DNA from: Squalus acanthias
Lineage: Eukaryota
Direction of reading: 5' to 3'
DNA length: 64,000 nt
Assembly: GCA_030390025.1 (NCBI GenBank)
Contig: CM059431.1
Coordinates: forward strand, 142,602,001-142,666,000
The notes under the pieces are model-generated. The model was given only the letters and a program-made list of their open reading frames with translations. It was not told the DNA's origin and made no database searches. Of this stretch, positions 1,213-62,577 are shown one piece after another. A program made the position numbers and the translations under genes. Position 1 is the first letter of the stretch; each line of letters opens with the position of its first letter.

Positions 1213-1273
1213 AATGTTATTAATAAACACTGGGGATTTACTCTGATTCCTGTTATTTCTCTCTGATCCCCAG

Positions 1274-1441
1274 GCTGGCTGATGTCGGTCTCACAGATTC
1301 TTGTGCCGAGGATCTCGTCTTCGCTCTCAGTACAATCCGTTCACTGATGGTTCTGGACCTGGGATCAAACTCCTTCACAGACCGATCTGTCCCCGCTCTC
1401 CGCCGACTCATATTGACCTGCAGGAGTCTGCAGTGGATCCG
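1274..1441 (+). CDS. NLR-type penultimate LRR exon
   Basis: CAG acceptor at 1271-1273 and GTGAGT donor at 1442; LADVGLTDSCAEDLVFALSTIRSLMVLDLGSNSFTDRSVPALRRLILTCRSLQWI. Confidence 0.88.
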
Positions 1442-2985: not shown

Positions 2986-4654
2986 TGTAAGGGTTTTGTG
3001 TGTGTGACACCGCCTGTGGCTCTGCTCAGCCTGGGTGCTAGTGCGAGGTTAGGCCTTGTTGCCTGTTCTAGTCTCCAGCCAGTCTGGGAGCACTAGACAC
3101 CTGTGAGTGCTTCGACCCACTCGCCCTTACGGTTCTGACACTGGACTTAGATGCGAGAGCCATAATGGAGAGAAAACTCAGGTAGACCCGGTTGAATGAT
3201 ACGAAATGGAAAATCTTTATTGCATATTATTCAAGATTACGAAATACATGTCATAAGCACAGATTAATGACAGTACAATCTTACACGCAGTTATGTAACT
3301 AATTTTAGGGAAACGAGGAACGAACGACACATCGTAAATGGGGGCACACATTACAGTTATCCTTAAAACTTAAACCCTCCCCTATCAATACCTGCTCTAA
3401 ACTAGATTTGTAGGATCGAGACTCATGCTCACCACTCGTGATAACTCGGAGAATTCCGAAAACTCTGCTCGGATGTTTTTACCGCAGCACCTGATCACCC
3501 ACGTGGGTGATCAGGGGTCTCTACCCCACTTGTTTACTCGTTTCTGCTCCGGCTAGCAGGCTGGACCGTCTGCTGTCATGAAGATCTGTGTTGTCCTCGG
3601 AGTTCTGACACGACTCGAAAAATAGTCTTCCTGTGCCCTCGCCCCGATGCGATAAAACTCGAAGAATGGTCTTCCGATGCCAGTTCTGTAAAACTCAAAA
3701 GATAGTCTTCCTGGGCAAGGAAAATGTCTATTCGACCTACAGGCGCGGTCGGGCTTACTGACCGTGGCGATACGTATAGTCGTCCTCTTCTCATCTCATC
3801 TCATCTCATCTCGGGCCTTCGGTTCCAACACCGTTTACCGACTTCTCGGGATGGTGTGCCCATTTCAAGGCTTCACAGCCCGGTTCCACACAGATCTTCG
3901 CGGCAAGCCACGAGGCTGATCCTGGCGGATCAGAAAGTTCAATAGTCTTCTAGCAAGTCGAGCAGCAAGAGGCAGATGCAAGAGTCAGAGTCGCAGGCGA
4001 AGAAAGAGTCAAGCGGCAAGAGGATAAGAGAAAGATGGACGGTTGGAGCTTACAGTTATAGTGCTGAAATTCCTCTTTTCCCGCCCAATCTTAATGTCTT
4101 TTCTTTTGTCAGAGTTTTGGCGCCCAAACTTCTTGTATAGGGTGATCTCCGTTTTAATGGGTTTCGGTGATACTCATAACTGCCTGTTAATACTTTTCCC
4201 ATTGTGTAACCGGTCAGTATTCTCCCTGGAGGGGTTTTGGGGCTTCCAAATGTTTCTGTAACTACCCGCAAACGGCTCTCTCATCGTAGAGTCGTGGAGA
4301 TTTTGCATGTTAATGTCTTTGGATGGGTTCTTGATCGCTTGGTACAATAGCCCTTATTCGCACCTGGGAGACCGATTCCAGTATTTATGTGTAAAATGCA
4401 AACCCATTATGTCTTGTGATTTATCTCAAATGTGATGAGTCTTGTCCGATCTCGCACAAATGTTTATTGGAACGCCATCTTGTCTGCTTATCGAAAAGTC
4501 TAGAATGTTCTGCCACGAGGTGTGGCGGCCATTTTACAGGCTGCTTGTGTCCACTTTGAAAACCTGACAGCATTCTGCTGAAATAAAGCTGTTTGAACGA
4601 AACTATGTGTTTTCTCCTTATTTATAAAATCGCGATTATATTGCGAATTCTACA
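2986..4654 (-). repeat. 3' LTR (1669 bp)
   Basis: Near-identical to 10725-12416; TG..CA termini; TATAA on the minus strand at ~4056-4060 and AATAAA at 3216-3221. Confidence 0.95.
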
Positions 4655-4666
4655 GTCCCTCCTGTT
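4655..4666 (-). promoter_or_regulatory. Polypurine tract
   Basis: Minus strand reads AACAGGAGGGAC immediately before the TG of the 3' LTR. Confidence 0.75.
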
Positions 4667-5104
4667 GATGCGAATAACTCCGCTTATCGTATCAAAAAAA
4701 TTGTGGTGAGCAATATTATCTCGATTTCTCCAGAACCAGAAAAATCCCCATAACTTAAACTATCTAGGGTCTTTGCGTCGTCCTTATTTCCCAGGAAAAT
4801 TACATTCTTATAACACCGCAGGCATTATTTGCCTTTAAAACTTACACCACTTGTTTTCCTTCCAGGCGTAACCAGGCCGATGCCTCTCGTATCACCTGTA
4901 TATTCACATTTTTTTATTCAGGGAAAAGTAAAACAAAACAAAACCAAACAATCACATTCAACAACAACACCATCACCAAAATAATCAAAAACCAACTCTT
5001 AAACATGTCGAGTTCCAAACGTAATTACAGTCTCTGAAAAATCACGATCGATTACAACACTTCCGAGGCGCACGTGGCAAACGGGAGTGACGCCATTTTT
5101 CTGA

Positions 5105-7456
5105 TTACACGGTGCTTTCATCGTGCACGCGCACGTAACGTTCTCGCCACTCTCCCGTGTTTTCGTTCTTGGTGAGGCGTTTGCCTCTCTTACAATGCAC
5201 GACCAATAAGTATACCACAATAAACACTTGGCATACAACTAAAATGTGGGAGGCTATTCTAATCCAGGAAGGCACTTCAATGTTGGTGAACAGATTCCAC
5301 CACGGTGGAATTACTATGTCCAGAATTTCTGTCCCTATCTCGACAGTTTTCTGTTCTAGTGTGTAAAAATGTTTTTGTGATACCGCGACGGCTTTCAAAA
5401 GCTTGGTGAGGTGTTCAGGGAGAGGGGGAATGAGGTATCCGAAATGCGCGACGAATCGCTGCAGGTCGGTGAAGTTCTCTTTTACGGTAAGATGAACCGT
5501 GGATGGTTCAGGGATTGGGACAATTCGCTGTTGTGCTACTTGAACTTCCGCCCTGGGTTTGAAACAGAAACTGCTGTCACTCACCGGACACCGGCTACGG
5601 TTTCCATGCTGGTAGTGTTGCGCTGCAGTGGTAACACAATATGTTCCACCCCCGATGTATGCTACCTGCGGAGGCACATGATCTTGTGCCATTGCCTCCA
5701 TGGTGCAATTCATGGGCTTGGCACCAGCCGTTCTGAACCCGCACTGTGGTGTTAAAAAGGCATTCAAGTGCTGGGGACACAGTATTATGTGTGCTCCCCT
5801 GCCACGACAACCAGAGAGATCGGTACCTGCCATCGTTTGCTCCCAGCGGATGACTTAAGGTGGAACCGCTGCATAGCGAATGTGTGCTCCCCCCTGAATG
5901 ACACCAATGTTCTCTACCCGATACACCGGGGCGGGCTTTGCTGTGTTGCCCAAAACCGGCATACGTAATACTATACCCATGATAGTATGGTTTGATCGTC
6001 CGCAGTCCACGGGGACTGGGTATGCTTCTGAAGCTAGCCTGAGCTGGCACGGGCTTAATGCGTTCTGAAAAGGGTGGAGCACCCGCAGGTGTTTGTTACT
6101 TATCCAGGACGGGACCAAACCTTGTTTTAAATCCTCCAAATTACTGCGGCCCTCGCCCAGTAACCACGCCCCGTAAAGCACGCACACCTCATTCTGCGCA
6201 GCCTGATCGGACGCATTCCGATCTTCCCTAATCAGGGCATTTACCGTTCTCGCGTGTTTCTCTAGTTCAGCTATTATTTCTTTTAAATGGAGAGTCATGG
6301 CCTGGTCCTCGTGTAACCCAGACCCAACCACCTTATTTTCATCTGTGAGAATGTCTTTTAATTGCGTTTTTAAGCCATTAATCTGGGTCTGCAGCTCCAC
6401 GCTGTCTAGAGCGTTGACCACAGATGTACCTGTGTTGAAAGCAGTGAACACGTCGTTCAAAACACCCCTTCTTTGCCTCCCCACCTGATCCAAAACTTCA
6501 TGTGGTGCGGTGTACAAACTTGTTTTATCAATTTCCGCGAAATCGAATTCGTAAAATTGTCTGAACATCTTGGTCAACAGGACCTGATATAACTGTTCCG
6601 TCTTTTTGGGGCACCACTCTGGTAACTGTACCTCGGTGAGATTTAAAATCAACGAGGCCACCGCGTAATGTACCCCCTGAAATAGTATCTGGTCTGTGGG
6701 GACCAGTACCAAACCATTCCCGGGTCCCTTACTGGTTTTAGGGCACCCTTCTTCCTTAGCTAGAACCACCGGAATCGTGGGCGGGGCTTTGCGTGGGCGC
6801 GTAATGAGTTCAGTGGCATTTACCGGGATCGGGGAGAATGGGGCTCCGCACCCCCTGGTGCTCGCATCCCACCTCATCCCCTGTCCGTTATCCTGCCATT
6901 GATTAATGAAAAATATGGAGATGCCTTTGGGGCAAACGTACTTTGACCCCCACATACATACATAAATTCCCTCATCCGGTTCCCACCATTTGTCCCAACA
7001 GACTCTCACTTGTCCGTTTGTCCCCGTAATTGTCCGATGGGTATTATTACCCAGTCGTTCCCACTCGACCGAAGAGTTCCTCATATTTTTGCTCAGCTTT
7101 CGTAGCCACCACCATCGGCTCAATGGGACATTCCCATTACAAGTCAAACAAATCCATTTGCCGACGGTGACGCTGATCCTGGGTGCGATGATCCTTACTT
7201 TGGGGCACAGTAAAGAAGTCTCTTGGTAGGCAAAACCCGATGTGCTGGAATACTCCGTTGAGTTCGTTCCCAGCCATCCTGGCCACCTTCCCTTGTGGAA
7301 ATAGGTGGTGGTCTCCTCAGCCTCCCGCCTTCCGGTCCCATCCACCGCGATGGGGGCCGTGTCCCCGGAGCATCCAAACACCACGACATCCTTGGTGTGG
7401 CCTCGATAGGCCAATCCGCATCCGATTGCCGCGAGCAATACTAGAATTCGTTCCAT
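5105..7456 (-). pseudogene. env: env: class-I-fusion-like envelope glycoprotein (~780 codons), one in-frame TAA at 5855-5857
   Basis: Signal peptide MERILVLLAAIGCGLA; Ig-like motif (V.L.C..W..DEGIYVC); furin site RQRR/GVLNDVFTAF; heptad repeat; Cys-rich ectodomain; TM WIRIASHILVVCQVFIVVYLLVV; basic tail. ORFs 5855..7567 and 5105..5833 are in the same frame. Confidence 0.85.
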
Positions 7457-7619
7457 CCTTCCTTGGTTCCTGTGATCAGATAGAATGAGGTAGCCAGCCT
7501 CGCAAGAGTCTCTGGCTTTTGTGAAGGGTGAGCGGGTCCCCTGACCTCGCCTCACGTAAGAAGACATGTGCGCTGGATAAACTTTAACTAATCCTATCTC
7601 AAAAAAACTCCCATCATTT

Positions 7620-7760
7620 TACTTTCTGTTAAACAAAATTAAACTACCGACTTAAACCTATTTTAAAACTATAACCTTATAACCTCATCTAAAACTATAA
7701 ACTTATTCTTAACCTGATTTAAAACTATAAACTTATAAAACTTATCCTAAACTTATTACT
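7620..7760. repeat. AT-rich short tandem repeats (AAACTATAAACTTAT-like) between ORF-X and env
   Basis: Repeated AAAACTATAA(A)C(C/T)TTAT units seen directly. Confidence 0.6.
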
Positions 7761-7792
7761 GTACAGCGCCGCCCGTTCCCAGGGCGGCCCAT

Positions 7793-8485
7793 TTAAATTC
7801 TGAAAAGGCTGCCACGAGCCTTTCCCGACGGTGGGAGGGCATTGACCCCTCCCTTTGATCTGCCGCAGCCTGTTGCTGCCTCGCTGGGACTGGGACCTGC
7901 CTGGGCTGCCTGAGCCTTGTGCCTACGCCTTGGGCCAGTCTGGGGACTTGACCATATCTTCCTGGGTTGGGGTATCCGACTTGACCTACGGAGAGCTACC
8001 GGGGGCAGGAACTCCAGGACCGACGGACCGGGTTCCGAGACTTCCACCGTGGCGACCTGTGGTCCCGCCACAGTCGCTGGCTCCGCCTCCCCTGGCTCCG
8101 CCTCCCTGAACTCGGGAACTGCAGCTTGTGGCACCGCCCTACTCGGCCCAGTAGGCGGCCCTTCACTCGCAGTCCCTACCTCCCTCGAGGGCAAGACGTC
8201 CAAGGCGGGCGGCTCGGGCTCTGAGGCTTCCATCGCCACGCCCTGTGGTCCCACCACAGCGGCTGGCTCCGCCTCCCCTAGCTCCTCCCCCCTGCGTTCG
8301 GGACCTGCAGCTTCGGCCTCCACCCTGTGTGGATCTCTATCTGCAGCCCCTGTCTCCCCTATACCTGAATCGGGGGCGACCCTTTTCGTCCTCCGATTCC
8401 AGCTCCTCCTCGCTTGTGTCACTATCTTCGTCGAGCTCCTCGAACTCTTCCTCATCTGACTCCCAACCCCAATAAAATATCTCAC
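7793..8485 (-). CDS. ORF-X part 2: Pro/Ala/Glu-rich, internally duplicated, basic C-terminus; function unknown
   Basis: 230-codon open frame with a duplicated GEAEPA.V.GPQ...E.SEP.P..L..LP unit and an LRRSSRIPQPRK motif; overlaps ORF-X part 1 in another frame. Confidence 0.55.
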   Translation of the reverse strand: MRYFIGVGSQMRKSSRSSTKIVTQARRSWNRRTKRVAPDSGIGETGAADRDPHRVEAEAAGPERRGEELGEAEPAAVVGPQGVAMEASEPEPPALDVLPSREVGTASEGPPTGPSRAVPQAAVPEFREAEPGEAEPATVAGPQVATVEVSEPGPSVLEFLPPVALRRSSRIPQPRKIWSSPQTGPRRRHKAQAAQAGPSPSEAATGCGRSKGGVNALPPSGKARGSLFRI

Positions 8486-8912
8486 ATTTTTCTAGGATGT
8501 CCTCTCCCCTGATGCAAGCTGCTTTGCCTGCCTGTGTGCCCTGTGGCCCTACCTGGGGCTGCGAGTCCCCACTCGCAGGTTTGGCCCCTGTGGTAGGCCC
8601 TTGTGCGCCCGGCTTATACAGTTTGCACTGATTTACGTCCTCATTCTCCCTGCTTCTGGCTACCCTGTAGGCTGCTTTTATTTCTCTAAGCTGTGCTTCT
8701 AGCATGAGCACGTCTAACTTTCCCATTAAGCGGGCGTTCTCCTCCCGCAGGGCCTGCTCTCTAAGCTGCCCTTCCAGCCCATCTATTTTCCCTATTAAGC
8801 GGGCGTTCTCCTCCCGCAAGGGCTGCTCTTTTAACCTGGCCTCCTCACAGGAGACCCCCTCCTGTGCGTGTCTTTTAAAAGGACACAGGTAGGCAGGCTG
8901 CGTGGGCTCTAG
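8337..8912 (-). CDS. ORF-X part 1: coiled-coil plus acidic tract, in frame with gag beyond the TGA
   Basis: Stop-free from 8912 to the stop at 8337-8339 in the gag frame; LREENARL repeated twice; acidic run ESDEEEFEELDEDSDTSEEELESEDE. Confidence 0.65.
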   Translation of the reverse strand, partial: LEPTQPAYLCPFKRHAQEGVSCEEARLKEQPLREENARLIGKIDGLEGQLREQALREENARLMGKLDVLMLEAQLREIKAAYRVARSRENEDVNQCKLYKPGAQGPTTGAKPASGDSQPQVGPQGTQAGKAACIRGEDILEKCEIFYWGWESDEEEFEELDEDSDTSEEELESEDEKGRPRFRYRGDRGCR

Positions 8913-10720
8913 TCATTGGGTACTATTGGACGGGGCTGTGGCACTTGCGGGGCCGGTAGCAACCGCCACCCTTCCATGCGCACTCATGAGGTTACGCATG
9001 GCTCCCAACACTGATTCGATCGCGTCGGGATGGATGGGTGCACTAGCTCCCCTATCAGAGACAGGCGCCTGGGCTCGGGCTGCGGGATTTTTATCCCTGG
9101 AATCCTTCCAAGGGTTCCTGCAGTTCTTGCGCCAGTGCCCTGTCTTCCCACACCCGTAACAAGCATTGCTGGCCTGCGGGGCGCGGTTACCCTCCTGATG
9201 CCACTCCCTTTGAGCCGGGGCTGCGGGTCGTACCTCATGTACCTTTCCCTTAAGGGGACGTGTTCCCATACCCCTGGTATTATGGTACCCTACCGTGAGT
9301 CGATTTAGGACCGACTCCTCTGTAGTGGCGGGGTCAGTGGGATCAAACCACGCTTTTGCCTGCTCCCTGACGGCTGGCAAACTGTTGGCTACTATACACC
9401 TGAGCCAATGAGTTAAACCGACGCCTTCCACATCGGCGCGCTCTGGCGCACCTGGGCAGCTACGCTGGTATACTGGCCACAGCCTGTCGGCGAAAACCTT
9501 CGGGGGTTCTCCCTCCATCTGCACTGTCTGTCCATGTCTAACAAACGGACCTTCATCGTCCGCTCCCAACACTTCTAGGACCTCATCTCTTAGTGCCCCA
9601 TAGGTATTAGTTCCCCTCTTGCTCTCGTCTGAGAGACACTGAAGGATCGAACTATCTAATGAGAATAACAGCATCTTTGCTGTTTCCCCATCGTCGCAGC
9701 CGTTAATGGCTGCGGTTTGCTCTATTTCCCTAAAATGTACGGAAGGGTCGTCTGACTCGGCCAGTTTCCGTACGTGACTGATCATAATCCTCAGCTGGTG
9801 TGAGCTGTGAGGCAACACAAGCTGGTTGAGGAGATCCCCTTCTTCCCCACCGTCTCTGTTCGGGCCCCTTTTGATACCCGTAACCGGACACAACGGTCCC
9901 GGCTTCACTTCTACCTCAGTGGGCTCTTTCGTTACTTCCACCACTTCCTCCCTTACCCAGGTTGCCGAATAGCTGGGTGGTGCGGAGGGCATAGTGGCTA
10001 ATACTTCCTCTGCTTTGTTCGGTGGGGATTTCTGAAATCCCTCATCCACTAGCGGCTGGTGTGCTGACGGGCTGATAAGGCACACCATGCCGTGCGCTTT
10101 GTTCAAGGCCTGTTTAAGGTTCCCTATCTCTTTTTGGCAGACGCTGTGATCGGCCCCCTGAAATTTATCCTCGAGGGCCATCTTATATGCCGCCCTAACC
10201 CCCGTTAAGCTCTCTTCCTGGGCTTTTATTTGGGCAGCTAGGCGGGCACATCGTTCCTTTAATCTACCCTCACTTAATTTTGCCTCAGTGACCTGGCACT
10301 CGAGGTAATCTATTTTTGCTTTATGGTAGTTGGCGACTTCCTGGCATTCTTGATGCAACGCATTTAAAGTCGTGATGAGCTGCTGCCCCCCCCCGCGACC
10401 TTCTCGTCCATTTCCACCTCTAAACTCCTGATCTGAGCTGCCTGCGCTGAGATGACCTGGTCCGAAATTTGGACTTGTCTTTTATAGCACATCAGCCAGA
10501 CCGCTTTCTCCACTGCCTTTTTATGTTCTTTGCTATCTGTCCATCTCTCGGCTGCCTCTAGTGGACGCTTATCCACCAGCAGGTCACTTATCCATTTCTT
10601 GGTCAAATTCACTTTTCCGAACACATAATCTGCTATTCTCTCTTCCATGACATTTCGCCCATTCATACCAGGGTCTAACACATTATTCTCTCGCTGCCAA
10701 TATCCTGCCGCGGTCGCCAT
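8913..10720 (-). CDS. gag: gag polyprotein (~600 aa), one frameshift at the G9 homopolymer 10386-10394
   Basis: N-terminal coiled coil; PSAPPSY late-domain motif; capsid-like segment (DPSVHFREIEQTAAINGC); zinc knuckle CYGCGKTGHWRKNC (9120-9161). Adding one G to the run joins the two ORFs. Confidence 0.85.
10702..10719 (-). promoter_or_regulatory. Primer-binding site (tRNA-Ser-like)
   Basis: TGGCGACCGCGGCAGGAT, 5 nt inside the 5' LTR; its complement resembles the 3' end of vertebrate tRNA-Ser (ATCCTGCCG....CGCCA). Confidence 0.65.
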
Positions 10721-10724
10721 TTTC

Positions 10725-12416
10725 TGTAAGGGTTTTTGTGTGTGTGACACCGCCTGTGGCTCTGTGCTCAGCCTGGGTGCTAGTGCGAGGTTAGGCCTTG
10801 TTGCCTGTTCTGGTCTCCAGCCAGTCTGGGAGCACTAGACACCTGTGAGTGGTTCGACCCACTCGCCCTTACGGTTCTGACACTGGACTTAGATGCGAGA
10901 GCAATAATGGAGAGAAAACTCAGGTAGACCCGGTTGAATGGTACGAAATGGAAAATCTTTATTGCATATTATTCAAGATTACGAAATACATGTCATAAGC
11001 ACAGATTAATGACAGTACAATCTTACACGCAGTTATGTAACTAATTTTAGGGAAACGAGGAACGAACGACACATCGTAAATGGGGGCACACATTACAGTT
11101 ATCCTTAAAACTTAAACCCTCCCCTATCAATACCTGCTCTAAACTAGATTTGTAGGATCGAGACTCATGCTCACCACTCGTGATAACTCGGAGAATTCCG
11201 AAAACTCTGCTCGGATGTTTTTACCGCAGCACCTGATCACCCACGTGTTGATCAGGGGTCTCTGTACCCCACTTGTTTACTCGTTTCTGCTCCGGCTAGC
11301 AGGCTGGACCGTCTGCTGTCATGAAGATCTGTGTTGTCCTCGGAGTTCCGACACGACTCGAAAAATAGTCTTCCTGTGCCCTCGCCCCGATGCGATAAAA
11401 CTCGAAGAATGGTCTTCCGATGCCAGTTCTGTAAAACTCAAAAGATAGTCTTCCTGGGCAAGGAAAATGTCTATTCGACCTACAGGCGCGGTCGGGGCTT
11501 ACTGACCGTGGCGATACGTATGGTCGTCTTCTTCTCTTCTCATCTCATCTCATCTCATCTCAGCTCGGGCCTTCGGTTTCAACACCGTTTACCGACTTCT
11601 CGGGATGGTGTGCCCGTTTCAAGGCTTCACAGCCCGGTTCCACACAGATCTTCGCGGCAAGCCACGAGGCTGATCCTGGCGGATCAGAAAGTTCAATAGT
11701 CTTCTAGCAAGTCGAGCAGCAAGAGGCAGATGCAAGAGTCAGAGTCGCAGGCGAAGAAAGAGTCAAGCGGCAAGAGGATAAGAGAAAGATGGACGGTTGG
11801 AGCTTACAGTTATAGTGCTGAAATTCCTCTTTTCCCGCCCAATCTTAATGTCTTTTCTTTTGTCAGAGTTTTGGCGCCCAAACTTCTTGTATAGGGTGAT
11901 CTCCGTTTTAATGGGTTTCGGTGATACTCGTAACTGCCTGAGTACCTGTTAATACTTTTCCCATTGTGTAACCGGTCAGTATTCTCCCTGGAGGGGTTTT
12001 GGGGCTTCCAAATGTTTCTGTAACTACCCGCAAGCGGCTCACTCATCGTAGAGTCGTGGGGATTTTGCATGTTAATGTCTTTGGATGGGTTCTTGATCGC
12101 TTGGTACAATAGCCCTTATTCGCACCTGGGAGACCGATTCCAGTATTTATGTGTAAAATGCAAACCCATTATGTCTTGTGATTTATCTCAAATGTGATGA
12201 GTCTTGTCCGATCTCGCACAAATGTTTATTGGAACGCCATCTTGTCTGCTTATCGAAAAGTCTAGAATGTTCTGCCACGAGGTGTGGCGGCCATTTTACA
12301 GGCTGCTTGTGTCCACTTTGAAAACCTGACAGCATTCTGCTGAAATAAAGCTGTTTGAACGAAACGATGTGTTTTCTCCTTATTTATAAAATCGCGATTA
12401 TATTGCGAATTCTACA
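10725..12416 (-). repeat. 5' LTR (1692 bp)
   Basis: Direct repeat of 2986-4654 with scattered substitutions and small indels. Confidence 0.95.
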
Positions 12417-12449
12417 CTCTCCCAGTGAGGAGTCAGACTCTGTAAAAAG

Positions 12450-12839: not shown

Positions 12840-13282
12840 CTTCTCTTCTTGGGCAATCCCTCGGAACCAAGGATGACTTGCTTGCACACTAAAAATGAGT
12901 TCTCAGGTGACTGATGAGTCCAAGGTGGGACCTACAGTCTCTGTCACAGGTGGGGCAGACGATGGTTGAAGGGGCGGGTGGGTGGGGTGCTTGGGTTGAT
13001 GTGCGCTCCTTGCGCTTGGCTTCCGCTTGCTCCCGGCGAAGAGACTCGAGGTGTTCGGCGCTTTCCCGGATGCTTCTCCCCAACTTTGTGCGGTCTTGGG
13101 CCAGGGATTCCCAGGTGTCAGTGGGGATGTTGCACTTTTTCAAGGAGGCTTTGAGTGTGTCCTTGAGGTGTTCCCTCTGCTCGCTTGCCGTGTCGGAGCT
13201 CCGAGGAGAGCGCTTGTTTTGGGAGTCTCGTATCGGGCATATGAACGATGTGGCCCGTCCATCGGAGCTGGTCGAGCGTGAT
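12840..13282 (-). mobile_element. RTE-clade LINE, 3' fragment
   Basis: LKKCNIPTDTWESLAQDR...CPTCDRDCRSHLGLISHLRTH, an RTE-type C-terminus with a C2H2 finger, plus upstream QLRWTGHIVHMP. Confidence 0.8.
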
Positions 13283-16200
13283 CAGTCTCTGGAGGAGGTC
13301 TCGGTCAGTCTCCTCTGGAGGAGGTCTCGGTCAGTCTCCTCTGGAGGAGGCCTCGGTCAGTCCCCTCTGGAGGAGGTCTCGGTCAGTCCCCTCTGGAGGA
13401 GGTCTCGGTCAGTCTCCTCTGGAGGAGGTCACGGTCAGTCTCCTCTGGAGGAGGTCTCGGTCAGTCTCCTCTGGAGGAGGTCTCGGTCAGTCTCTGGAGG
13501 AGGTCTCGGTCAGTCTCCTCTGGAGGAGGTCTCGGTCAGTCTCCTCTGGAGGAGGCCTCGGTCAGTCCCCTCTGGAGGAGGTCTCGGTCAGTCCCCAATG
13601 GAGGAGGTCTCGGACATTCCCCAATGGAGGAGGTCTCGGACATTCTCCCCTGGAGGAGGTCTCGGTCAGTCCCCTCTGGAGGAGGTCTCGGTCAGTCCCC
13701 TCTGGAGGAGGTCTCGGTCAGTCCCCTCTGGAGGAGGTCTCGGTCAGTCTCCTCTGGAGGTGGTCTCGGTCAGTCTCTGGAGGAGGCCTCGGTCAGTCTC
13801 TCTAGGAGGTCTCAGTCAGTCCCCTCTGGAGGAGGCCTCGGTCAGTCTCCTCTGGAGGAGGTCTCTGTCAGTCTCCTCTGGAGGAGGTCTCGGTCAGTCT
13901 CTGGAGGAGGCCTCGGTCAGTCTCCTCTGGAGGAGGTCTCGGTCAGTCCCCTCTGGAGGAGGCCTCGGTCAGTCTCCTCTGGAGGAGGTCTCGGTCAGTC
14001 TCCACTGGAGGAGATCACGGTCAGTCTCTGGAGGAGGTCTCGGTCAGTCTCTGGAGGAGGTCTCGGTCAGTCTCCTCTGGTGGAGGTCTCGGTCAGTCTC
14101 TGGAGGAGGTCTCGGTCAGTCTCCTCTGGAGGAGGTCTCGGTCAGTCTCCTCTGGAGGAGGTCTCCGTCAGTCTCTGGAGGAGGTCTCGGTCAGTCTCTG
14201 GAGGAGGTCTCGGTCAGTCTCTGGAGGAGGTCTCGGTCAGTCTCTGGAGGAGGTCTCGGTCAGTCTCCTCTGGAGGAGGTCTCGGTCAGTCCCCTCTGGA
14301 GGAGGTCTCCGTCAGTCCCCTCTGCAGGAGGTCTCAGTCAGTCTCCTCTGCAGGAGGTCTCGGTCAGTCCCCTCTGGAGGAGGTCTCGGTCAGTCCCCTC
14401 TGAAGGAGGTCTCGGTCAGTCTCTGGAGGAGGTCTCGGTCAGTCTCCTCTGAAGGAGGTCTCCGTCAGTCCCCTCTGGAGGAGGTCTCGGTCAGTCCCCT
14501 CTGGAGGAGGCCTCGGTCAGTCTCCTCCTGGAGGCGATCACGGTCAGTCCCCTTTGGAGGAGGTCTCGGTCACTCCCCTTTGGAGGAGGTCTCGGTCACT
14601 CCCCTTTGGAGGAGATCTCGGTCACTCCCCTCTGGAGGAGGTCTCGGTCAGTCTCTGGAGGAGGTCTCGGTCAGTCCCCTCTGGAGGAGGTCTCGGTCAG
14701 TCCACTCTGGAGGAGGTCTCGGTCAGTCTCTGGAGGAGGTCTCGGTCAGTCTCCTCTGGAGGAGGTCTCGGCCAGTCTCCTGGAGGAGGTCTCGGTCAGT
14801 CTCTGGAGGAGGCCTCGGTCAGTCCCCTCTGGAGGAGGCCTTGGTCAGTCCCCTCTGGAGGAGGTGTCGGTCAGTCCCCTCTGGAGGAGGTCTCGGTCAG
14901 TCTCTGGAGGAGGTCTCGGTCAGTCCCCTCTGGAGGAGGTCTCGGTCAGTCCCCTCTGGAGGAGGTCTTGGTCAGTCCCCTCTGGAGGAGGTCTCGGTCA
15001 GTCTCCTCTGGAGGAGGTCTCGGTCAGTCCCCTCTGGAGGAGGTCTCGGTCAGTCCCCTCTGGAGGAGGTCTCGGTCAGTCTCTGGAGGAGGTCTCGGTC
15101 AGTCTACTCTGGAGGAGGTCTCGGTCACTCCCCTCTGGAGGAGGTCTCGGTCAGTCTCCACTGGAGGAGATCACGGTCAGTCTCTGGAGGAGGTCTCGGT
15201 CAGTCTCTGGAGGAGGTCTCGGTCAGTCTCCTCTGGTGGAGGTCTCGGTCAGTCTCTGGAGGAATTCTCGGTCAGTCCCCGGAGGAGGTCTCGGTCAGTC
15301 CCCTCTGGAGGAGGTCTCGGTCAGTCCCCTCTGGAGGAGGTCTCGGTCAGTCCCCTCTGGACGAGGTCTCGGTCAGTCCCCTCTGGTGAAGGTCTCGGTC
15401 AGTCTACTCTGGAGCAGGTCTCGGTCAGTCCCCTCTGGAGCAGATCTCGGTCAGTCCCCTCTGGAGGAGGTCTCGGTCAGTCTCTGGAGGAGGTCTCGGT
15501 CAGTCACCTCTGGAGGAGGTTTCGGTCAGTCCCCTCTGGAGCAGATCTCGGTCATTCCCCTCTGGAGGAGGTCTCGGTCAGTCTCTGGAGGAGGTCTCGG
15601 TCAGTCTCCTCTGGAGGAGGTCTCGGTCAGTCACCTCTGGAGGAGGTCTCGGTCACTCCCCTCTGGAGGAGGTCTCGGTCAGTCTCCTCTGGAGCAGGTC
15701 TCGGTCAGTCTACTCTGGAGCAGTTCTCGGTCACTCCCCTCTGGAGGAGGTCTCGGTCACTCCCCTCTGGAGGAGGTCTCGGTCAGTCCCATCTGGATGT
15801 GGTCTCGGTCAGTCCCATCTGGAGGAGGTCTCGGTCAGTCCCCTCTGGAGGAGGTTTCGGTCAGTCTCGTCTGGTGGAGGTCTCGGTCAGTCTCTGGAGG
15901 AGGTCTCGGTCAGTCCCCTCTGGAGGAGGTCTCGGTCAGTCCCCTCTGGCGGAGGTTTCGGTCAGTCTCCTCTGGAGGAGGTCTCGGTCAGTCTCCTCTG
16001 GAGGAGGTCTCGGTCAGTCTCCTCTGGAGGAGTTCTCGGTCAGTCTCTCTAGGAGGCCTCGGTCAGTCACCTCTGGAGGAGGTCTCGGTCAGTCTTTGGA
16101 GGAGGTCTCAGTCAGTCCCCTCTGGAGGAGGTCTCGGTCAGTCCCCTCTGGAGGAGGTCCCGGTCTGTCCCCTCTGGAGTCTTCTTTGGAGGAGGTCTCG

Positions 16201-19200
16201 GTCAGTCTCCTCTGGAGCAGGTCTCGGTCATCCTCTGGAGGAGGTCTCGGTCAGTCCCCTCTGGAGGAGGTCTCGGTCAGTCTCTGGAGGAGGTCTCGGT
16301 CAGTCTCCTCTGGAGGAGGTCTCGGTCAGTCTCTGGAGGAGGTCTCGGTCAGTCACCTCTGGAGGAGGTCTCGGTCAGTCCCCTCTGGATGTGGTCTCGG
16401 TCAGTCCCCTCTGGATGTGGTCTCGGTCAGTCCCCTCTGGAGGAGGTTTCGGTCAGTCTCCTCTGGAGGAGGTCTCGGTCAGTCTCTGGAGGAGGTCTCG
16501 GTCAGTCCCCTCTGGAGGAGGTCTCGGTCAGTCCCCTCTGGAGGAGGTTTTGGTCAGTCTCCTCTGGAGGAGTTCTCGGTCAGTCTCTCTAGGAGGCCTC
16601 GGTCAGTCTCCTCTGGAGGAGGTCTCGGTCAGTCCCCTCTGGAGGAGGTCTCGGTCAGTCCCCTCTGGAGGAGGTCCCGGTCTGTCCCCTCTGGAGGAGG
16701 TCCTGGTCTGTCCCCTCTGGAGGAGGTCTCGGTCAGTCAGTCTCTGGAGGAGGTCACGGTCAGTCTCCTCTTGAGGAGGTCTCGGTCAGTCCTCTTTGGA
16801 GGAGGTCTCGGTCAGTCTCCTTTGGTGGAGGTCTCGGTCAGTCTTTGGAGGAGGTCTCGGTCAGTCCCCTCTGGAGGAGGTCCCGGTCTGTCCCCTCTGG
16901 AGGAGGTCTCGGTCAGTCAGTCTCTGGAGGAGGTCTCGGTCAGTCTCCTCTGGAGGAGGTCTCGGTCAGTCCTCTTTGGAGGAGGTCTCGGTCAGTCTCC
17001 TCTGGAGGTCTCGGTCAGTCCCCTCTGGAAGAGGTCTCGGTCAGTCTCCTCTGGAGGAGGTCTCGGTCAGTCCCCTCTGGGGGTGGTCTCGGTCAGACTC
17101 CTCTGGAGGAGGTCTCGGTCAGTCTCTGGAGGAGGTCTCGGTCAGTCTCCTCTGGAGGAGGTCTCGGTCAGTCTCTGGAGGAGGTCTCTGTCAGTCTCCT
17201 CTGGAGGTGGTCTCGGTCAGTCTCTGGAGGAGGTCTCGGTCAGTCTCTGGAGGAGGTCTCGGTCAGTCTCTGGAGGAGGTCTCGGTCAGTCCCCTCTGGG
17301 GGTGGTCTCGGTCAGTGTCCTCTTGAGGAGGTCTCGGTCAGTCCTCTTTGGAGGAGGTCTCGGTCAGTCTCCTCTGGACGTCTCGGTCAGTCCCCTCTGG
17401 AAGAGGTCTCGGTCAGTCTCCTCTGGAGGAGGTCTCGGTCAGTCTCTGGAGGAGGTCTCGGTCACTCCCCTCTGGGGGTGGTCTCGGTCAGACTCCTCTG
17501 GAGGAGGTCTAGGTCAGTCCCCTCTGGAGGAGGTCTCGGTCAGTCTCCTCTGGAGGTGGTCTCTGTCAGTCACCTCTGGAGGAGGTCTCGGTCAGTCTTT
17601 GGAGGAGGTCTCAGTCAGTCCCCTCTGGAGGAGGTCTCGGTCAGTCCCCTCTGGAGGAGGTCCCGGTCTGTCCCCTCTGGAGTCTTCTTTGGAGGAGGTC
17701 TCGGTCAGTCTCCTCTGGAGCAGGTCTCGGTCATCCTCTGGAGGAGGTCTCGGTCAGTCCCCTCTGGAGGAGGTCTCGGTCAGTCTCTGGAGGAGGTCTC
17801 GGTCAGTCTCCTCTGGAGGAGGTCTCGGTCAGTCTCTGGAGGAGGTCTCGGTCAGTCACCTCTGGAGGAGGTCTCGGTCAGTCCCCTCTGGATGTGGTCT
17901 CGGTCAGTCCCCTCTGGATGTGGTCTCGGTCAGTCCCCTCTGGAGGAGGTTTCGGTCAGTCTCCTCTGGAGGAGGACTCGGTCAGTCTCTGGAGGAGGTC
18001 TCGGTCAGTCCCCTCTGGAGGAGGTCTCGGTCAGTCCCCTCTGGAGGAGGTTTCGGTCAGTCTCCTCTGGAGGAGTTCTCGGTCAGTCTCTCTAGGAGGC
18101 CTCGGTCAGTCTCCTCTGGAGGAGGTCTCGGTTAGTCTTTGGAGGAGGTCTCGGTCAGTCCCCTCTGGAGGAGGTCTCGGTCAGTCCCCTCTGGAGGAGG
18201 TCCCGGTCTGTCCCCTCTGGAGGAGGTCCTGGTCTGTCCCCTCTGGAGGAGGTCTCGGTCAGTCAGTCTCTGGAGGAGGTCTCGGTCAGTCTCCTCTTGA
18301 GGAGGTCTCGGTCAGTCCTCTTTGGAGGAGGTCTCGGTCAGTCTCCTTTGGTGGAGGTCTCGGTCAGTCTCCTCTGGAGGAGGTCTCGGTCAGTCTTTGG
18401 AGGAGGTCTCGGTCAGTCCCCTCTGGAGGAGGTCCCGGTCTGTCCCCTCTGGAGGAGGTCTCGGTCAGTCAGTCTCTGGAGGAGGTCTCGGTCAGTCTCC
18501 TCTGGAGGAGGTCTCGGTCAGTCCTCTTTGGAGGAGGTCTCGGTCAGTCTCCTCTGGAGGTCTCGGTCAGTCCCCTCTGGAAGAGGTCTCGGTCAGTCTC
18601 CTCTGGAGGAGGTCTCGGTCAGTCCCCTCTGGGGGTGGTCTCGGTCAGACTCCTCTGGAGGAGGTCTCGGTCAGTCTCTGGAGGAGGTCTCGGTCAGTCT
18701 CCTCTGGAGGAGGTCTCGGTCAGTCTCTGGAGGAGGTCTCTGTCAGTCTCCTCTGGAGGTGGTCTCGGTCAGTCTCTGGAGGAGGTCTCGGTCAGTCTCT
18801 GGAGGAGGTCTCGGTCAGTCTCTGGAGGAGGTCTCGGTCAGTCTCTGGAGGAGGTCTCGGTCAGTCCCCTCTGGGGGTGGTCTCGGTCAGTGTCCTCTTG
18901 AGGAGGTCTCGGTCAGTCCTCTTTGGAGGAGGTCTCGGTCAGTCTCCTCTGGACGTCTCGGTCAGTCCCCTCTGGAAGAGGTCTCGGTCAGTCTCCTCTG
19001 GAGGAGGTCTCGGTCAGTCTCTGGAGGAGGTCTCGGTCACTCCCCTCTGGGGGTGGTCTCGGTCAGACTCCTCTGGAGGAGGTCTCGGTCAGTCCCCTCT
19101 GGAGGAGGTCTCGGTCAGTCTCCTCTGGAGGTGGTCTCTGTCAGTCTCCTCTGGAGGAGGTCTCGGTCAGTCTCTGGAGGAGGTCTCGGTCAGTCTCTGG

Positions 19201-20045
19201 AGGAGGTCTCGGTCAGACTCCTCTGGAGGAGGTCTCGGTCAGTCTCCTCTGGAGGTGGTCTCTGTCAGTCTCCTCTGGAGGTGGTCTCGGTCAGTCTCTG
19301 GAGGAGGTCTCGGTCAGTCTCCTCTGGAGGTGGTCTCTGTCAGTCTCCTCTGGAGGTGGTCTCTGTCAGTCTCTGGAGGAGGTCTCGGTCAGTCTGCTCT
19401 GGAGGTCTCAGTCAGTCCCCTCTGGAGGAGGTCTCGGTCAGTCTCCTCTGGAGGAGGTCTCGGTCAGTCTCTGGAGGAGGTCTCGGTCAGTCCCCTCTGG
19501 GGCTGGTCTCGGTCAGACTCCTCTGGAGGAGGTCTCGGTCAGTCCCCTCTGGAGGAGGTCTCGGTCAGTCTCTGGAGGAGGTCTCGGTCAGTCTCTGGAG
19601 GAGGTCTCGGTCAATCCCCTCTGGGGGTGGTCTCGGTCGGACTCCTCTGGAGGAGGTCTCGGTCAGTCTCTGGAGGAGGTGTCGGTCAGTCTCCTCTGGA
19701 GAAGGTCTCGGTCAGTCTCCTCTGGAGGAGGTCTCGGTCAGTCTCCTCTGGAGGAGGTCTCGGTCAGTCCCCTCTGGACGAGGTCTCGGTCAGTCTCCTC
19801 TGGAGGAGGTCTCGGTCAGTCCCCTCTGGAGGAGGTCTCTGTCAGTCTCCTCTGGAGGAGGTCTCGGTCAGTCTCCTCTGGAGGAGGTCTCGGTCAGTCT
19901 CCTCTGGAGGAGGTCTCGGTCAGACTCCTCTGGAGGTGGTCTCGGTCAGTCCCCTCTGGAGGAGGTCTCGGTCAGTCTCCTCTGGAGGAGGTCTCGGTCA
20001 GTCTCCTCTGGAGGTGGTCTCGGTCAGTCCCCACTGGAGGAGGTT
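13283..20045. repeat. Satellite array, 26-bp unit GGAGGAGGTCTCGGTCAGTCYCCTCT with a 23-bp variant
   Basis: About 6.8 kb of directly visible tandem units; variant blocks recur at ~1.5-kb spacing. Confidence 0.97.
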
Positions 20046-20204
20046 TGACTTTAAAAGCTGTTCTGCTTACTTTCAATTCGTCTAATTCCACTCCACTCAA
20101 ATTAAGACAAGACAGACAGGCAGTGAGAGAGACACATGAAATCATGACAGCATGCAGAATGGAAATCAAATCAGAAAATGCAGTAAATTCCTTCCCAGAA
20201 TCTC

Positions 20205-23329: not shown

Positions 23330-24553
23330 CTATAATGCTGCAATAAAAGAGCACTGTTTCACTTTAAATTGTGTCTGTACCTTTATTTGCCTTGCTGGGG
23401 GAGGGGGAGGTACAAGGCGACAATACCTCGTGAAGGTGTTGGCTACCAGCTGCTCCCGAACAGCCTTACTTTGAGCAGCAGTTGGCTCTTCCCCATCAGG
23501 CCTTCCCACAGGCACATTGGCATTGTCCACGTCCTCCATTTCTGCAGGTAGTTCATCTGCAGCGTTAAGGGTCAGTCCTTCCCACAGGGCAAAGTTATGC
23601 AAAGCACAACAGACCACCACAATCTTTGCCACTTTCAGAGGAGAATACTGCAAGGTCCCCCCTGACCTGTCCAGGCACCGGAAGCGTGATTTCAGAACTC
23701 CGATTGGCCACTCCACCACTTGCCGTGTGGACACGAGTGCCTGGTTGTATCTCTCCTGAGCCTCATTATTGGTCTTGCGGTAGGGAGTCATCAGCCATGG
23801 TCTTAGCGGGTAGCCCTTGTCGCCCAATATCCATGCGGATCCTGGAGGCAATGCGTTGAGGGCGCCATATAAGTTAGAGTTACGGAGGACGAAGGAGTCA
23901 TGATTACTTCCACGGTTACTTGCATTCACATTTAAGATGCTGAGATGTGCATCACAGACAATCTGGGCATTCCTGTTGATAAATGTCACAGGTGCAACCC
24001 CTGGTGCCTTCAATGCTACATGGGTTCCATCGACAGCCCCAATCACTTTGGGGAATCCAGCAATGTTATGAAATGCAAGCGCCATCTCCTTTTGATGGCG
24101 AGCGGACAAGTCATAGTTAATGAACTCAGAAGCCCTATGGAAAATGGCTTCTGTGACCTGGTGAATGCAGGCCCTCGCAGCATTCTTGGATTTGTTGGAA
24201 ATGTCACCGGTGCTTGCCTGAAAAGTCCTACTTGCAAAGAAGTTCAGTGCTGTGGTTACCTTCATATTCACTGACAAGGCAGTGACGGTTTTCGAGCGTG
24301 TTTGAAGGTCCTCCTTTAACATGTCACAGATTCGGCCAATTGACTCTTTACTGAAGCGCAGCCTCCTCACACACAACTCCTCCGACAGCATCTCAAATGA
24401 CAGCCTCTCTCTGTACACTCTATTTGGTGGGTAGTAGTTTCTCCTTCTCAGGAGGAGACGGGCTTGGTTCCTCTGTCTGATTTGTTGTCTGGCATCAAAA
24501 ATTCTCTGATACAAAATCCCACAGAGGAACAGGAATTGATTGTGAAAGGGCAT
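23330..24553 (-). CDS. HARBI1-like DDE transposase, probably defective
   Basis: GFPKVIGAVDGTHV, GSNHDSFV, LGDKGYPLRPWLMTP and TRQVVE..IGVLKSRFRCL motifs; the usual K.GxHSI segment between FINR and NAQIVCD is missing. Confidence 0.9.
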   Translation of the reverse strand: MPFHNQFLFLCGILYQRIFDARQQIRQRNQARLLLRRRNYYPPNRVYRERLSFEMLSEELCVRRLRFSKESIGRICDMLKEDLQTRSKTVTALSVNMKVTTALNFFASRTFQASTGDISNKSKNAARACIHQVTEAIFHRASEFINYDLSARHQKEMALAFHNIAGFPKVIGAVDGTHVALKAPGVAPVTFINRNAQIVCDAHLSILNVNASNRGSNHDSFVLRNSNLYGALNALPPGSAWILGDKGYPLRPWLMTPYRKTNNEAQERYNQALVSTRQVVEWPIGVLKSRFRCLDRSGGTLQYSPLKVAKIVVVCCALHNFALWEGLTLNAADELPAEMEDVDNANVPVGRPDGEEPTAAQSKAVREQLVANTFTRYCRLVPPPPPARQIKVQTQFKVKQCSFIAAL

Positions 24554-25142
24554 CTTTCTCCCTCACAGGCTTCCACTTCATACTGAAAGTTGTAATGAAA
24601 AAATGGAAATAGTTGTTAAAGTAACTTTAGTAAAGTGAGTGGCTATAAAATCAGGTCGGGCTATGGTGGGAAACGTGTGCTATCGGATTGGGAACACATC
24701 TACCCGCCACACGGCCCTAGTTGATTTTCCAGAACTGTAACATTTTCATAAATTAATGCATACATACATACATACATAGATACTTACTTACTCATTTTCA
24801 TCTTTAAAACTTTTGAAATGTAAATAGTTCATTTTTAAACTTTCATTTTCACATTTATGATAGATACCTAAATATGCCTTGTTCACACCTACAGTTGCTA
24901 TACTACTCCAAATGGTCAAAACCCGTTTTTAAACTTTTTTTTAAATTGCAAACTTATCTGAGACTTAATTAAATAAACTTTGGTGGCTTTCAGATTTAAA
25001 AAAACTCACTTCAGTAGCCCCACTGCAAAAGGATTTATTCCTCCTGCTGTCTCTGGATCTTCAAAAATGGCTCTTACTCCTGCTTTTTACATGTGTAACT
25101 GCTAGGAGCTTACACACACTACTTTCATTCAGAAAAAATATT

Positions 25143-49602: not shown

Positions 49603-50523
49603 ATGGCAGGGGAGGCAGTGAAATGTTCCTCCTGCAGAATGTTTGAGGTGAGGGACGCCGTAGGTGTCCCTGCTGATTACACCTGTGGGAAGTGCACCCA
49701 TCTCCAGCTCCTCGAAAACCGTGTTAGGGAACTGGAGCTGGATGAACTTCGGATCATTCGGGAGGCAGAGGAGGTCATAGACAGAAGCTTCAGGGATGTA
49801 ATTACTCCAAAGCATGAAGATAGATGGGTGACGGTGAGAGGGGCTAGGAGGAAGCAGTCAGTGCAGGGATCCTCTGTGGTCGTTCCCCTCAGTAACAGGT
49901 ATACCGCTTTGAATACTGTTGAGGGGGACGACTTACCAGTGGTAAGCCATGGTGACCGGATCTCCGGCGCTGGGTCCGTCCCTGTGGCTCAGAAGGGAAG
50001 GGGGGAGAGCAGGAGAGCAATAGTTATTGGGGACTCAATAGACAGAGGGACAGATAGGAGGTTCTGTGGCAGCAAAGGAGACTCACGGATGGTATGTTGC
50101 CTCCTGGGTGCCAGGGTCCGTGACGTCTAGGACCGTGTTTTCAGAATCCTCAAAGGGGAGGGGGAACAATCACAAGTCGTGGTACACATTGGTACCAACG
50201 ACATAGGTAGGAGAAGGGACGGGGATTTAAAACAGGAATTTAGGGAGCTAGGTTGGAAGCTGAGAGCCAGTACAAACCATGTTGTCATTTCTGGTTTGTT
50301 GCCGGTGCCACGTGCTAGCGAGTTGAGGAACAGGGAGAGAGTGCAGATAAACACGTGGCTGCAGGGATGGTGTAGCGGGGAGGGTTTCAGTTATGTGGAT
50401 AATTAGAGCACATTCTGGGGAAACTGGGACCTGTACAAACAGGACGGTTTGCACCTGAACCAGAGGGGCACCAATATCCTGGGAGGGAAATTTGCTACTG
50501 CTCTTCGGGGGGGTTTAAACTAA
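49603..50523 (+). pseudogene. CR1 ORF1 (zinc finger, leucine zipper, SGNH esterase) with two in-frame TAG stops (50128-50130, 50404-50406)
   Basis: CSSC..CGKC, IVIGDS, VHIGTND and DGLH motifs, all in one frame. Confidence 0.88.
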
Positions 50524-50543
50524 TTTGTCAGGGGGATGGGAAA

Positions 50544-61167: not shown

Positions 61168-62577
61168 TCATTTTCCAGCTAATCTCAGAATCAGTGTCCA
61201 GGGAGATTTCACCACATTCTTCAGCTCTTCTCTGAATTTCCGCTGGTTCGCTGCATAAATACACGTGTTTAGACAGGAACTCAAATACTTCAACATTGCT
61301 CCGGTTTCAGTGGCGATATATCCAGGGTCTGTGCGGTCCCCTCGGTAATAAGTGGTGTTTGACAGTCTGGTAGTTACCAAACTCACGGCATTTGTCATCC
61401 ACAACAGTATAAAACTACCTGATACAGTGAAGAGTAAAATGATGGATTTCCTTCGGTTCTCCGTCTCTGGATCACACTGATTCTCCCTGTTGTGACCACG
61501 GAATCCCTTTCGGGCTTTATTGGCCATTAAAATACGTCTGACTGTCAAATAATTAAACAAGACAATCAAAGTAAAAGGAAGCCAAACAACCCAGGCGCTG
61601 TGAAACCAGATGTAGGCTATACCTGGAGGTGAGGAAAAAAAAGCCACACTGGATCGGCAGCCCCACTGCACCTTGTCAATTATTTGCTGAGGTTCAAATG
61701 CAAACAGTACGGGGATATCCTTTAATAAGATCAGGACTGAGAACGTTGTTATAACCGCGACCGCAGTTCTCTCGGTGCAATGCTTTGGTTTAAACTTCTG
61801 GCAGCAGAGAACTACAAATCGGTCAAATGTGAAGGAGACGGTGAACCAAACAGACCAATCGAGGTTGACAGTAGTCATGTATAGAATGAACTTACACACG
61901 GGAGTCTGGGATAGGAATGAAAGTGGAAAGTGATAACTGAAAATATAATACACTACTACATTGAACATCATGATCAGTAGATCTGCTGTTGCCATGGCCA
62001 ACATGTAGACAGAGATACACTTGGAAAGGCCGCATTTTCCTCGGGCGAGAATCACAATTGTCATCAAGTTCGCTGTAAGAAAGAGAGAGGAGAGAAATAA
62101 TGTTCCAGTGTCTGATTGAAATATATATGGAGCTACTTGTGGAGAGAATTTTACTCCATTCAGTGTGATTATCCACACGGAGCAGTTTGAGAACAGGATT
62201 AGTTTTGGAGCCATTACCTGGGAAACCCACCCACACATTTTAATGAGCTGCTGCAGCGCTCACTCTGCACGGAGTGACAAGACGGTCCGGAAATCCGCTA
62301 AAATCCTTATGTTGGAGCTTCAAAGAACATTGTGACATGAGTAAGGATTGAGGGGAATGGGGAAAGTGTGGACTGGCGATTCACGAGTTTGTTCGGGTAA
62401 CTACCGACTGTGCTGACATCAGGGAAACACGTTACCTTATACAACAGGCTGTAAGAACAGGGAGAGAGTAAACACCGATTAACAACAAACAGGTTACAAT
62501 GGCTCACCGGGGACACCGACGGCTGCGAGAATCGGGTAGTAAATCTCTTTGATCAGCAGAATAGCTGGTCGCCCCAT
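61168..62577 (-). CDS. GPR139/GPR142-like class A GPCR, two coding exons (62508-62577, 61168-62072), 324 aa
   Basis: Exon 1 MGRPAILLIKEIYYPILAAVGVP with a GTGAG donor; TTACAG acceptor; ANLMTIVIL, MATADL, SVWFTVSFTFDRF, LLW, NTCIY..RKFREEL; seven hydrophobic segments. Confidence 0.9.

Follow-up and report, generated by a model that had tools for sequence, protein, structure and literature searches.

Non-autonomous endogenous retroviruses (ERVs) with fused reading frames are already known, IAP 1-delta-1 and Bhikhari being examples. Mouse IAP 1-delta-1 is internally deleted, non-autonomous and highly successful, and its fused frame, which ends in pol, acts in cis and aids retrotransposition (PMC6466679). 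Defective ERVs that succeed have as a rule lost env or their entire coding capacity (PMC6466679). ERVs resembling snakehead retrovirus (SnRV) are known in the elephant shark (PMC4422223), and none of six chondrichthyan genomes was positive for lokiretroviruses (PMC7947760). SnRV, gammaretroviruses and epsilonretroviruses express pol by readthrough (PMC13517186). The available portions of the literature on SnRV and clade-Huo mention no pol-less form (PMC12193657, PMC6001957, PMC4422223), and our literature search, which left most subscription papers outside its coverage, found no paper on a pol-less gag-env SnRV-like family in sharks. Here we describe a pol-less gag-env family of Squalus acanthias, starting from a provirus on the minus strand at positions 2986-12416 of a 64,000-nucleotide stretch of contig CM059431.1 (142,602,001 to 142,666,000; the whole stretch is called the window).

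In a single event, 3.6 kb of pol, from protease to integrase, was exchanged in frame for a 242-bp coiled-coil piece from the Gag of a related family. This pol-replacement allele spread to about 1,000 sites and entered both types of long terminal repeat (LTR) found in the family. The pol-less form must borrow its enzymes from about 1,400 pol-bearing relatives, because its own were swapped out. We consider it probable that the family is a helper-dependent, pol-replacement form of a snakehead-retrovirus-like ERV of a cartilaginous fish.

Replacement of pol in ORF-X

The pol slot of the provirus holds an open reading frame (ORF), ORF-X, which an earlier note on this DNA had called unrelated to pol. 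Comparison with the pol-bearing relatives (helpers) contradicts that description. ORF-X consists of 11 codons (32 nt) that are the start of pol, a 242-bp filler (8639-8880) and the C-terminal tail of helper Pol; in an open sister copy, ORF-X residues 81-372 align with helper Pol 1205-1509 at 84.6% identity, and the tail makes up three quarters of ORF-X. The filler takes the place of 3,614 bp of pol, which leaves the frame shorter by a net 1,124 codons; pol resumes in frame a little before the SH3-like domain ends. The earlier note had counted a finding of degraded pol in ORF-X as a refutation of its reading; half of this applies, in that ORF-X is mostly a pol remnant, but its frame is conserved and not degraded. 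Of 23 sister copies, 18 have an ORF-X open for 368-393 codons past the gag stop, and 22 retain TGA-CTAG.

As the earlier note had observed, the interior lacks the retroviral enzymes; its ORFs gave neither a motif nor a Pfam match for protease, reverse transcriptase (RT), RNase H or integrase. Neither Pfam nor the ESM Atlas (best 0.79) gave a convincing family assignment for ORF-X itself. Both absences would suit a satellite element that is independent and carries a new gene without relation to pol. We regard this reading as highly improbable and indeed refuted, given that most of ORF-X aligns with the helper Pol tail at 85% identity and the filler is Gag-derived, that the element is 96-98% identical to the pol-bearing copy L051 outside the filler, and that the pol-less copies are not monophyletic.

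The filler product is a coiled coil with a 23-residue repeat and resembles Gag coiled coils of whale shark predictions. A third resident family has the same primer binding site (PBS) and stop context, unrelated LTRs, and about 75% identity in Pol and 40% in Gag; its members (L123-L130, L134-L138) look older. Against the Gag of this family the filler scored 54-56 at the DNA level (shuffle maxima 41-47), and none of 2,000 heptad shuffles reached its protein score. An origin from the family's own gag was rejected (DNA score 28, below the shuffle maximum of 44; 19 of 2,000 heptad shuffles equalled or exceeded the protein score). Therefore, the donor was a related family and not the element's own gag. 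The direct donor is unsampled or old, since the match is only about 60% at the DNA level, and searches did not find the exact source. Sequence has thus passed between families that are only about 40% identical in Gag.

Pol-less copies across the genome

A search with the pol slot returned 34 full-length matches among 40 scored, the window copy counted. All 20 type-A copies fetched, from the 33 full-length matches other than the window, were collinear and pol-less with the same junction, several being truncated or interrupted, and this junction was also present in three of three type-B copies. Exact patterns matched 974 pol-less 5' junctions, 1,402 pol-bearing junctions and 2,919 PBS sites in the genome (reversed controls, 0), which puts the pol-less share at about 41% of junction-bearing proviruses (974/2,376 exact matches). 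The junction patterns recovered 21 of 24 pol-less and 15 of 17 pol-bearing known copies and never matched the other class, so that the totals are lower bounds for matches; because of tandem arrays and unplaced contigs, however, there will be fewer independent insertions than the matches suggest. In a position-ordered sample from contig C1, made up of its first 13 junction sites, the pol core was absent throughout, ORF-X was open at 12, gag had an open frame exceeding 600 aa at 11, env had one exceeding 800 aa at nine, and all three were open at seven.

Six other pol-less copies with two LTRs have differing 4-bp target-site duplications (TSDs; one with a mismatch) and LTR distances of 0.36-1.0%. 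A 4-bp TSD was also found in three of three further copies measured and in solo LTRs; all 14 single nearest-LTR matches fetched lacked internal sequence and are solo LTRs. Contigs in public runs X9, X13 and X17, which carry other organism labels, bridge the 5' junction, and therefore the junction is not an assembly artefact. As for expression, no RNA run was listed among those with the stretch; two runs guessed to be RNA contain it, but as contigs of uncertain kind, and were not counted.

The earlier note had argued against a simple post-insertion deletion, and the 974 exact matches and distinct TSDs agree with it: the junction is not unique to this copy. The idea of such a deletion, with any multiplication due to segmental or tandem duplication, could appeal to those junction matches that stand in tandem arrays about 7.7 kb apart. 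However, the pol segment was replaced and not merely deleted, copies lie on many contigs with different TSDs and their own LTR pairs, and the junction is present in independent public runs; we give this refuted explanation virtually no credence.

Several further arrangements were seen. Tandem pol-less proviruses about 7.7 kb apart (C1 143.66-143.67 Mb, C11 61.70-61.71 Mb) are consistent with shared LTRs, members of the family are nested inside the family's own LTRs (L025/L046, L060), and some copies have a second PBS variant (L015, L024; PBS ~1963, element sense).

Pol-bearing helpers and recombination

A diverged LTR next to one copy gave entry to the helpers, leading to elements with an LTR spacing of 11.1 kb. 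These are of LTR type B, 16% from the LTR of the window copy. All five helpers fetched have a gag of 620-632 codons stop to stop, TGA-CTAG, an in-frame pol of 1,499-1,507 codons and an env of 815-819 codons. Their Pol runs in the order protease, RT, tether, RNase H, integrase and an SH3-like domain ending near residue 1224, beyond which lies a tail of about 290 residues. There are type-A helpers as well: L051 has 97.7% DNA identity to the window copy across LTR and gag, and 95.9% in the tail and env, and the 5' LTR of L054 is 2.6% from that of the window copy, with identical ends. For each helper type, all 40 RT matches scored were at 99-100% identity. Helpers and pol-less copies have a common PBS, polypurine tract (PPT), LTR ends and UGA-CUAG gag stop. 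The earlier proposal that Pol is borrowed in trans from a partner with matching signals is strengthened by these relatives. Other deletion forms also occur: L049 is pol-bearing with most of env gone, and L050 has lost most of gag. L134 and L136, both pol-bearing, have one internal env gap in common.

In trees of natural copies (41 gag, 41 tail and 35 env rows), both LTR types contain pol-less copies scattered among pol-bearing ones, and the pol-less copies are not monophyletic for gag, tail or env. Therefore, the pol-less form is a pol-replacement allele within one recombining population and not a separate satellite lineage. In three type-B pol-less copies, the B-like sequence ends about 30 nt short of the filler, with two different 5' switch patterns; together with the mixed trees, these patterns indicate that the filler moves between backgrounds as an allele. 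Co-packaging with template switching is the textbook cause of such mixing. The description of the element as satellite-type applies in that it is helper-dependent and multi-copy, but outside the filler it is the same virus as its helper.

Anatomy of the window copy

The provirus has the following features (window positions).

2986-12416, minus strand: provirus, LTR pair and interior
10725-12416, minus strand: 5' LTR, type A, 1,692 bp, with TGTAG...TTACA ends
2986-4654, minus strand: 3' LTR, 1,669 bp, with TGTAG...TTACA ends
12417-12421: TSD on the 5' side, 5 bp, CTCTC on the plus strand (family norm 4 bp)
2981-2985: TSD on the 3' side, 5 bp, flank duplication
10702-10719, minus strand: PBS, 5 nt past the 5' LTR, complementary to host tRNA-Arg(TCG)
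8913-10720, minus strand: gag, with an N-terminal coiled coil, a capsid-like middle and a single CCHC knuckle at ~9120-9161
8909-8915, minus strand: gag stop in UGA-CUAG context, with ORF-X in frame (pol in helpers)
8881-8912, minus strand: start of pol, the first ~11 codons being an N-terminal protease stub, by comparison with helper pol
8639-8880, minus strand: filler, 242 bp, with an internal 69-bp repeat, in place of 3,614 bp of pol
7793-8638, minus strand: Pol C-terminal tail, following the integrase SH3-like domain, by comparison with helper Pol
5105-7456, minus strand: env, with a start resembling a signal peptide and a hydrophobic anchor at the C-terminal end
~6955-7195, minus strand: Ig-like segment of env (weak Ig_3 match and Foldseek)
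6468-6479, minus strand: RQRR site of env, which also has a putative F-type fusion subunit
5855-5857, minus strand: premature internal stop in the env of this copy
4655-4663, minus strand: PPT, identical across pol-less and pol-bearing copies

Coordinates and alignment bear out the LTRs, TSD, PBS, PPT, gag and env that had been reported, although the 5-bp TSD is atypical of the family. "Structurally complete" is apt for the cis signals but not for coding. The gag is broken into two frames at a homopolymer run near 10390, ORF-X is broken into two near 8380, and the env stop recurs in none of the 19 sister copies that cover the site. The copy is, as its sequence reads, a dead member for which full-length Gag or Env would be out of reach. 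Its PBS overlaps an ATG in frame with gag, its Pol-tail region is acidic and Pro-rich with a 186-bp internal repeat and an RRS-R motif, and the window's ORF list has no long ORF between env and the 3' LTR. The PBS complement occurs at 424 places in the genome, and ARAGORN identified tRNA-Arg(TCG) at both loci scanned. Long tandem tRNA-Arg(TCG) gene arrays with a period of about 1.62 kb, and tRNA-Ser(GCT) alongside, were seen on C26 at ~39.0-42.2 Mb (L132, L133).

The LTR pair differs by 14 substitutions over 1,668 aligned columns (0.84%), plus 8 gaps, slightly less than the 1-2% first judged by eye. With t = d/2u, the insertion dates to about 19 Myr at the rate of 2.2e-10 assumed for the elephant shark (PMC4422223) and to about 2 Myr at a mammalian rate. 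The insertion is recent in a relative sense only; several relatives have LTR distances of 0-0.3%, and the window copy is therefore not among the youngest.

A 166-codon stop-to-stop frame (5595-6095, minus strand) overlaps env in another frame, and one of the same length is present in most type-A and type-B copies; it is possibly an overlapping ORF or a by-product of env conservation.

Selection and mode of spread

Among open type-A pol-less copies, pairwise pN/pS was 0.38 for gag (n=10), 0.24 for env (n=9) and 0.71 for ORF-X (n=15). Shared-variant omega was 0.59 for gag (p 0.007) and 0.26 for env (p 2e-5), with 1.98 for the non-coding control; for the tail it was 0.42 (p 0.11) and 1.29. These ratios indicate that gag and env are under purifying selection among the pol-less copies. 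As for the filler, length variants numbered four in frame and one frameshift, versus 6 and 28 in the control (p 0.011). ORF-X thus appears to keep its frame better than its residues.

We propose that coding-open copies would make Gag and Env, plus, at a low level, a Gag-X product by readthrough at UGA-CUAG in place of Gag-Pol. In alphaviruses, UGA-CUA serves as the type II context for readthrough (PMC13517186), and Gag-X is inferred because helpers need UGA-CUAG readthrough for Pol. No significant RNA structure followed the gag stop in three contexts (z -1.3, -0.4, +0.4), and no longer Gag-Pol fusion was found among 8,000 candidates searched, which is weak evidence. In cells that co-express pol-bearing copies, mixed particles would obtain Gag-Pol from the helper and prime on tRNA-Arg(TCG), and helper integrase would insert the product; co-packaging of pol-less and helper RNA would allow template switches that keep both forms mixed. 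Conservation of the ORF-X frame probably reflects a need for ribosomes that read through to terminate where the old pol frame normally ends, or else a preference of Gag-X for its own RNA in cis, as in IAP 1-delta-1; the exact residues would be of little importance.

Alternatively, the pol-less form may be a passive defective passenger, mobilized wholly by helper proteins like a defective-interfering genome, with its own products irrelevant and its gag, env and ORF-X frames open because the copies are young and steadily renewed as they recombine with helpers. Pol-less and pol-bearing copies are indeed mixed in the trees, ORF-X residues are near neutral, many copies are broken (the window's among them), and forms without env or gag also exist. 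However, the filler could not be refreshed from helpers, yet no stop or frameshift in it is shared among 23 copies. Its length changes are mostly in frame, although its mean diversity (about 5.8%, an approximate figure) is several times that of type-A pol (1.0%). Moreover, no env-breaking indel is shared among 17 pol-less copies, though one shared stop was counted. We therefore hold the passenger explanation to be possible but distinctly less likely than helper-dependent spread with retained gene products.

Several points weigh against retained function. Filler omega was 0.71 and not significant (p 0.17), the filler indel test is based on five events, and the final 140 codons of the tail evolve neutrally (omega 1.3 and 1.0). 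The purifying signal in gag and env may be inherited from helpers, because both genes recombine with helper copies, and it is not proof that the pol-less form relies on proteins of its own. The mixing could also stem from gene conversion among copies in the genome. Readthrough, translation, particle formation and mobilization in trans are, for this family, predictions from sequence. The earlier statement that the element supplies Gag and Env accordingly finds backing in the selection on pol-less gag and env, but the window copy makes neither protein full length; "particle-forming" was likewise deduced from sequence, and this copy could not produce the full-length Gag or Env involved.

An extension of helper-dependent spread, which we offer as speculative and rather unlikely, is a division of labour between two co-circulating genome types, one with enzymes and one with an enzyme-free Gag-X. 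The foreign Gag coiled coil might, though we doubt it, let Gag-X compete for particles or favour its own RNA. If this were true, the pol slot would be a swappable cassette, kept stably at about 40% frequency, that re-invades further LTR lineages by recombination, and both genome types would go on providing Env for reinfection.

More generally, this one assembly has thousands of young copies of each form, on which computation can address whether a defective retrovirus earns its passage with structural proteins or cheats, and whether cis-acting fusion proteins like that of IAP 1-delta-1 have arisen more than once.

Placement of the family and its Env

The nearest Pol relatives are one match at 89% and frog and coelacanth NYNRIN-like proteins at 41-45%; Env relatives come from skate and sawshark (55-75% identity), which together with the Gag matches suggests a cartilaginous-fish host. 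SnRV was the only relative found in IMG/VR and is collinear over Pol. Among named references it also had the best RT bit score, 271 versus 232 for the best gammaretrovirus. RT trees place the family with retroviruses (100/100), outside the sampled foamy and gamma/epsilon clades; these trees are without lokiretrovirus or fish foamy-like ERV rows, and one omits five proteins without a parsed RT motif. Grouping with SnRV received 62/86 in the best tree and was unresolved in the other, with alternatives not rejected. With this weak tree support, helper Pol appears closest to snakehead retrovirus and not to a lokiretrovirus. The family attests to a recent expansion on a large scale, in a cartilaginous fish, of an SnRV-like lineage that has been poorly sampled. 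Lokiretrovirus identity, the first lead, is disfavoured by the RT motif signature, compared by eye.

The mammalian-type foamy rows close at 100/100 without the family; a position as their sister was not rejected (approximately unbiased test, AU p 0.18). A spuma-type Gag and protease and the lack of a CCHC knuckle are hallmarks of Spumaretrovirinae. No spuma Pfam domain matched in the family, and its gag has a CCHC.

Env gave no Pfam match to paramyxovirus F (PF00523), and its profile found nothing relevant in the PDB. Its ESM features reach 0.90 to Baculo_F and Fusion_gly clusters, and AlphaFold models (mean pLDDT 33 and 32) are too poor for an F fold. The surface part probably contains an immunoglobulin-like domain (~6955-7195), as suggested by an Ig_3 match below the cut-off (E 0.017) and by Foldseek, where all rows listed appear antibody-type (E 2e-3 to 9e-3) from a poor model.

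Surroundings in the window

The insertion site is a short GT-rich repeat unit (2016-2153, 2895-2985, 12417-12440) that recurs upstream. Exons with leucine-rich repeats (LRR) at 176-360 and 1258-1361 (plus strand) match Pfam LRR_6 above the cut-off and belong to a gene that we take to be NLR-like; the provirus is antisense to this gene, just downstream of it or inside an intron. A large array of 23/26-bp tandem repeats (~13200-20200) yields long spurious ORFs. Three other long open frames, at 50403-53399 (plus strand, 999 codons), 23333-24562 (minus strand, 410) and 61171-62259 (minus strand, 363), are probably other transposons.

Comparison with known systems

SnRV appears to be the closest named virus. 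Its Pol and helper Pol are collinear, with 32% identity over 800 aa (E 2e-109), and both viruses have a gag with an N-terminal coiled coil and one CCHC and place gag and pol in one frame across a stop. A Gag match in the coiled coil (E 3e-4) may point to homology. In contrast, the stop is UAG-GGC in SnRV (PMC13517186) and UGA-CUAG here, the LTR is 518 bp versus about 1.67 kb, the Pol tail is about 70 versus 290 aa, and the env genes are collinear without significant similarity.

Lokiretroviruses have a tether and RNase H as helper Pol does, a trait common to other retroviruses and not diagnostic, and an F-like env with an RXKR-type site (PMC7947760). In addition, the nearest Pol relatives of our family carry NYNRIN-like names. 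However, the lokiretrovirus RT reads CPFGY(A/S)NSPA(E/D)FNIFL (PMC7947760) and the one here LPQGFHNSPSIFHQ, which by eye is SnRV-like.

The chicken elements EAV-HP and ART-CH are defective ERVs thought to be helper-spread and to recombine with relatives (PMC4607243). Unlike the present family, they are Alpharetrovirus-like. Their copies are reportedly mostly without pol, and we know of no in-frame replacement ORF in them. Zebrafish Bhikhari (Bik-1/Bik-2) comprises young fish ERVs without pol that have a coiled-coil Gag and depend on a partner (PMC12067270). It differs in encoding Gag only, with no env, in being related to lokiretroviruses, and in that its partner is not identified in the available portion of that report (PMC12067270), whereas partners abound here in the same genome.

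IAP 1-delta-1 is likewise a non-autonomous form that keeps a reading frame ending in pol sequence. It has lost part of gag and has no env, as far as the available text describes it, whereas here gag and env are whole, the readthrough stop is retained and foreign Gag sequence is inserted. Our literature searches found no other case in which gag, env and the readthrough frame are kept together with a foreign Gag insert, in a form that makes up about 41% of the family.

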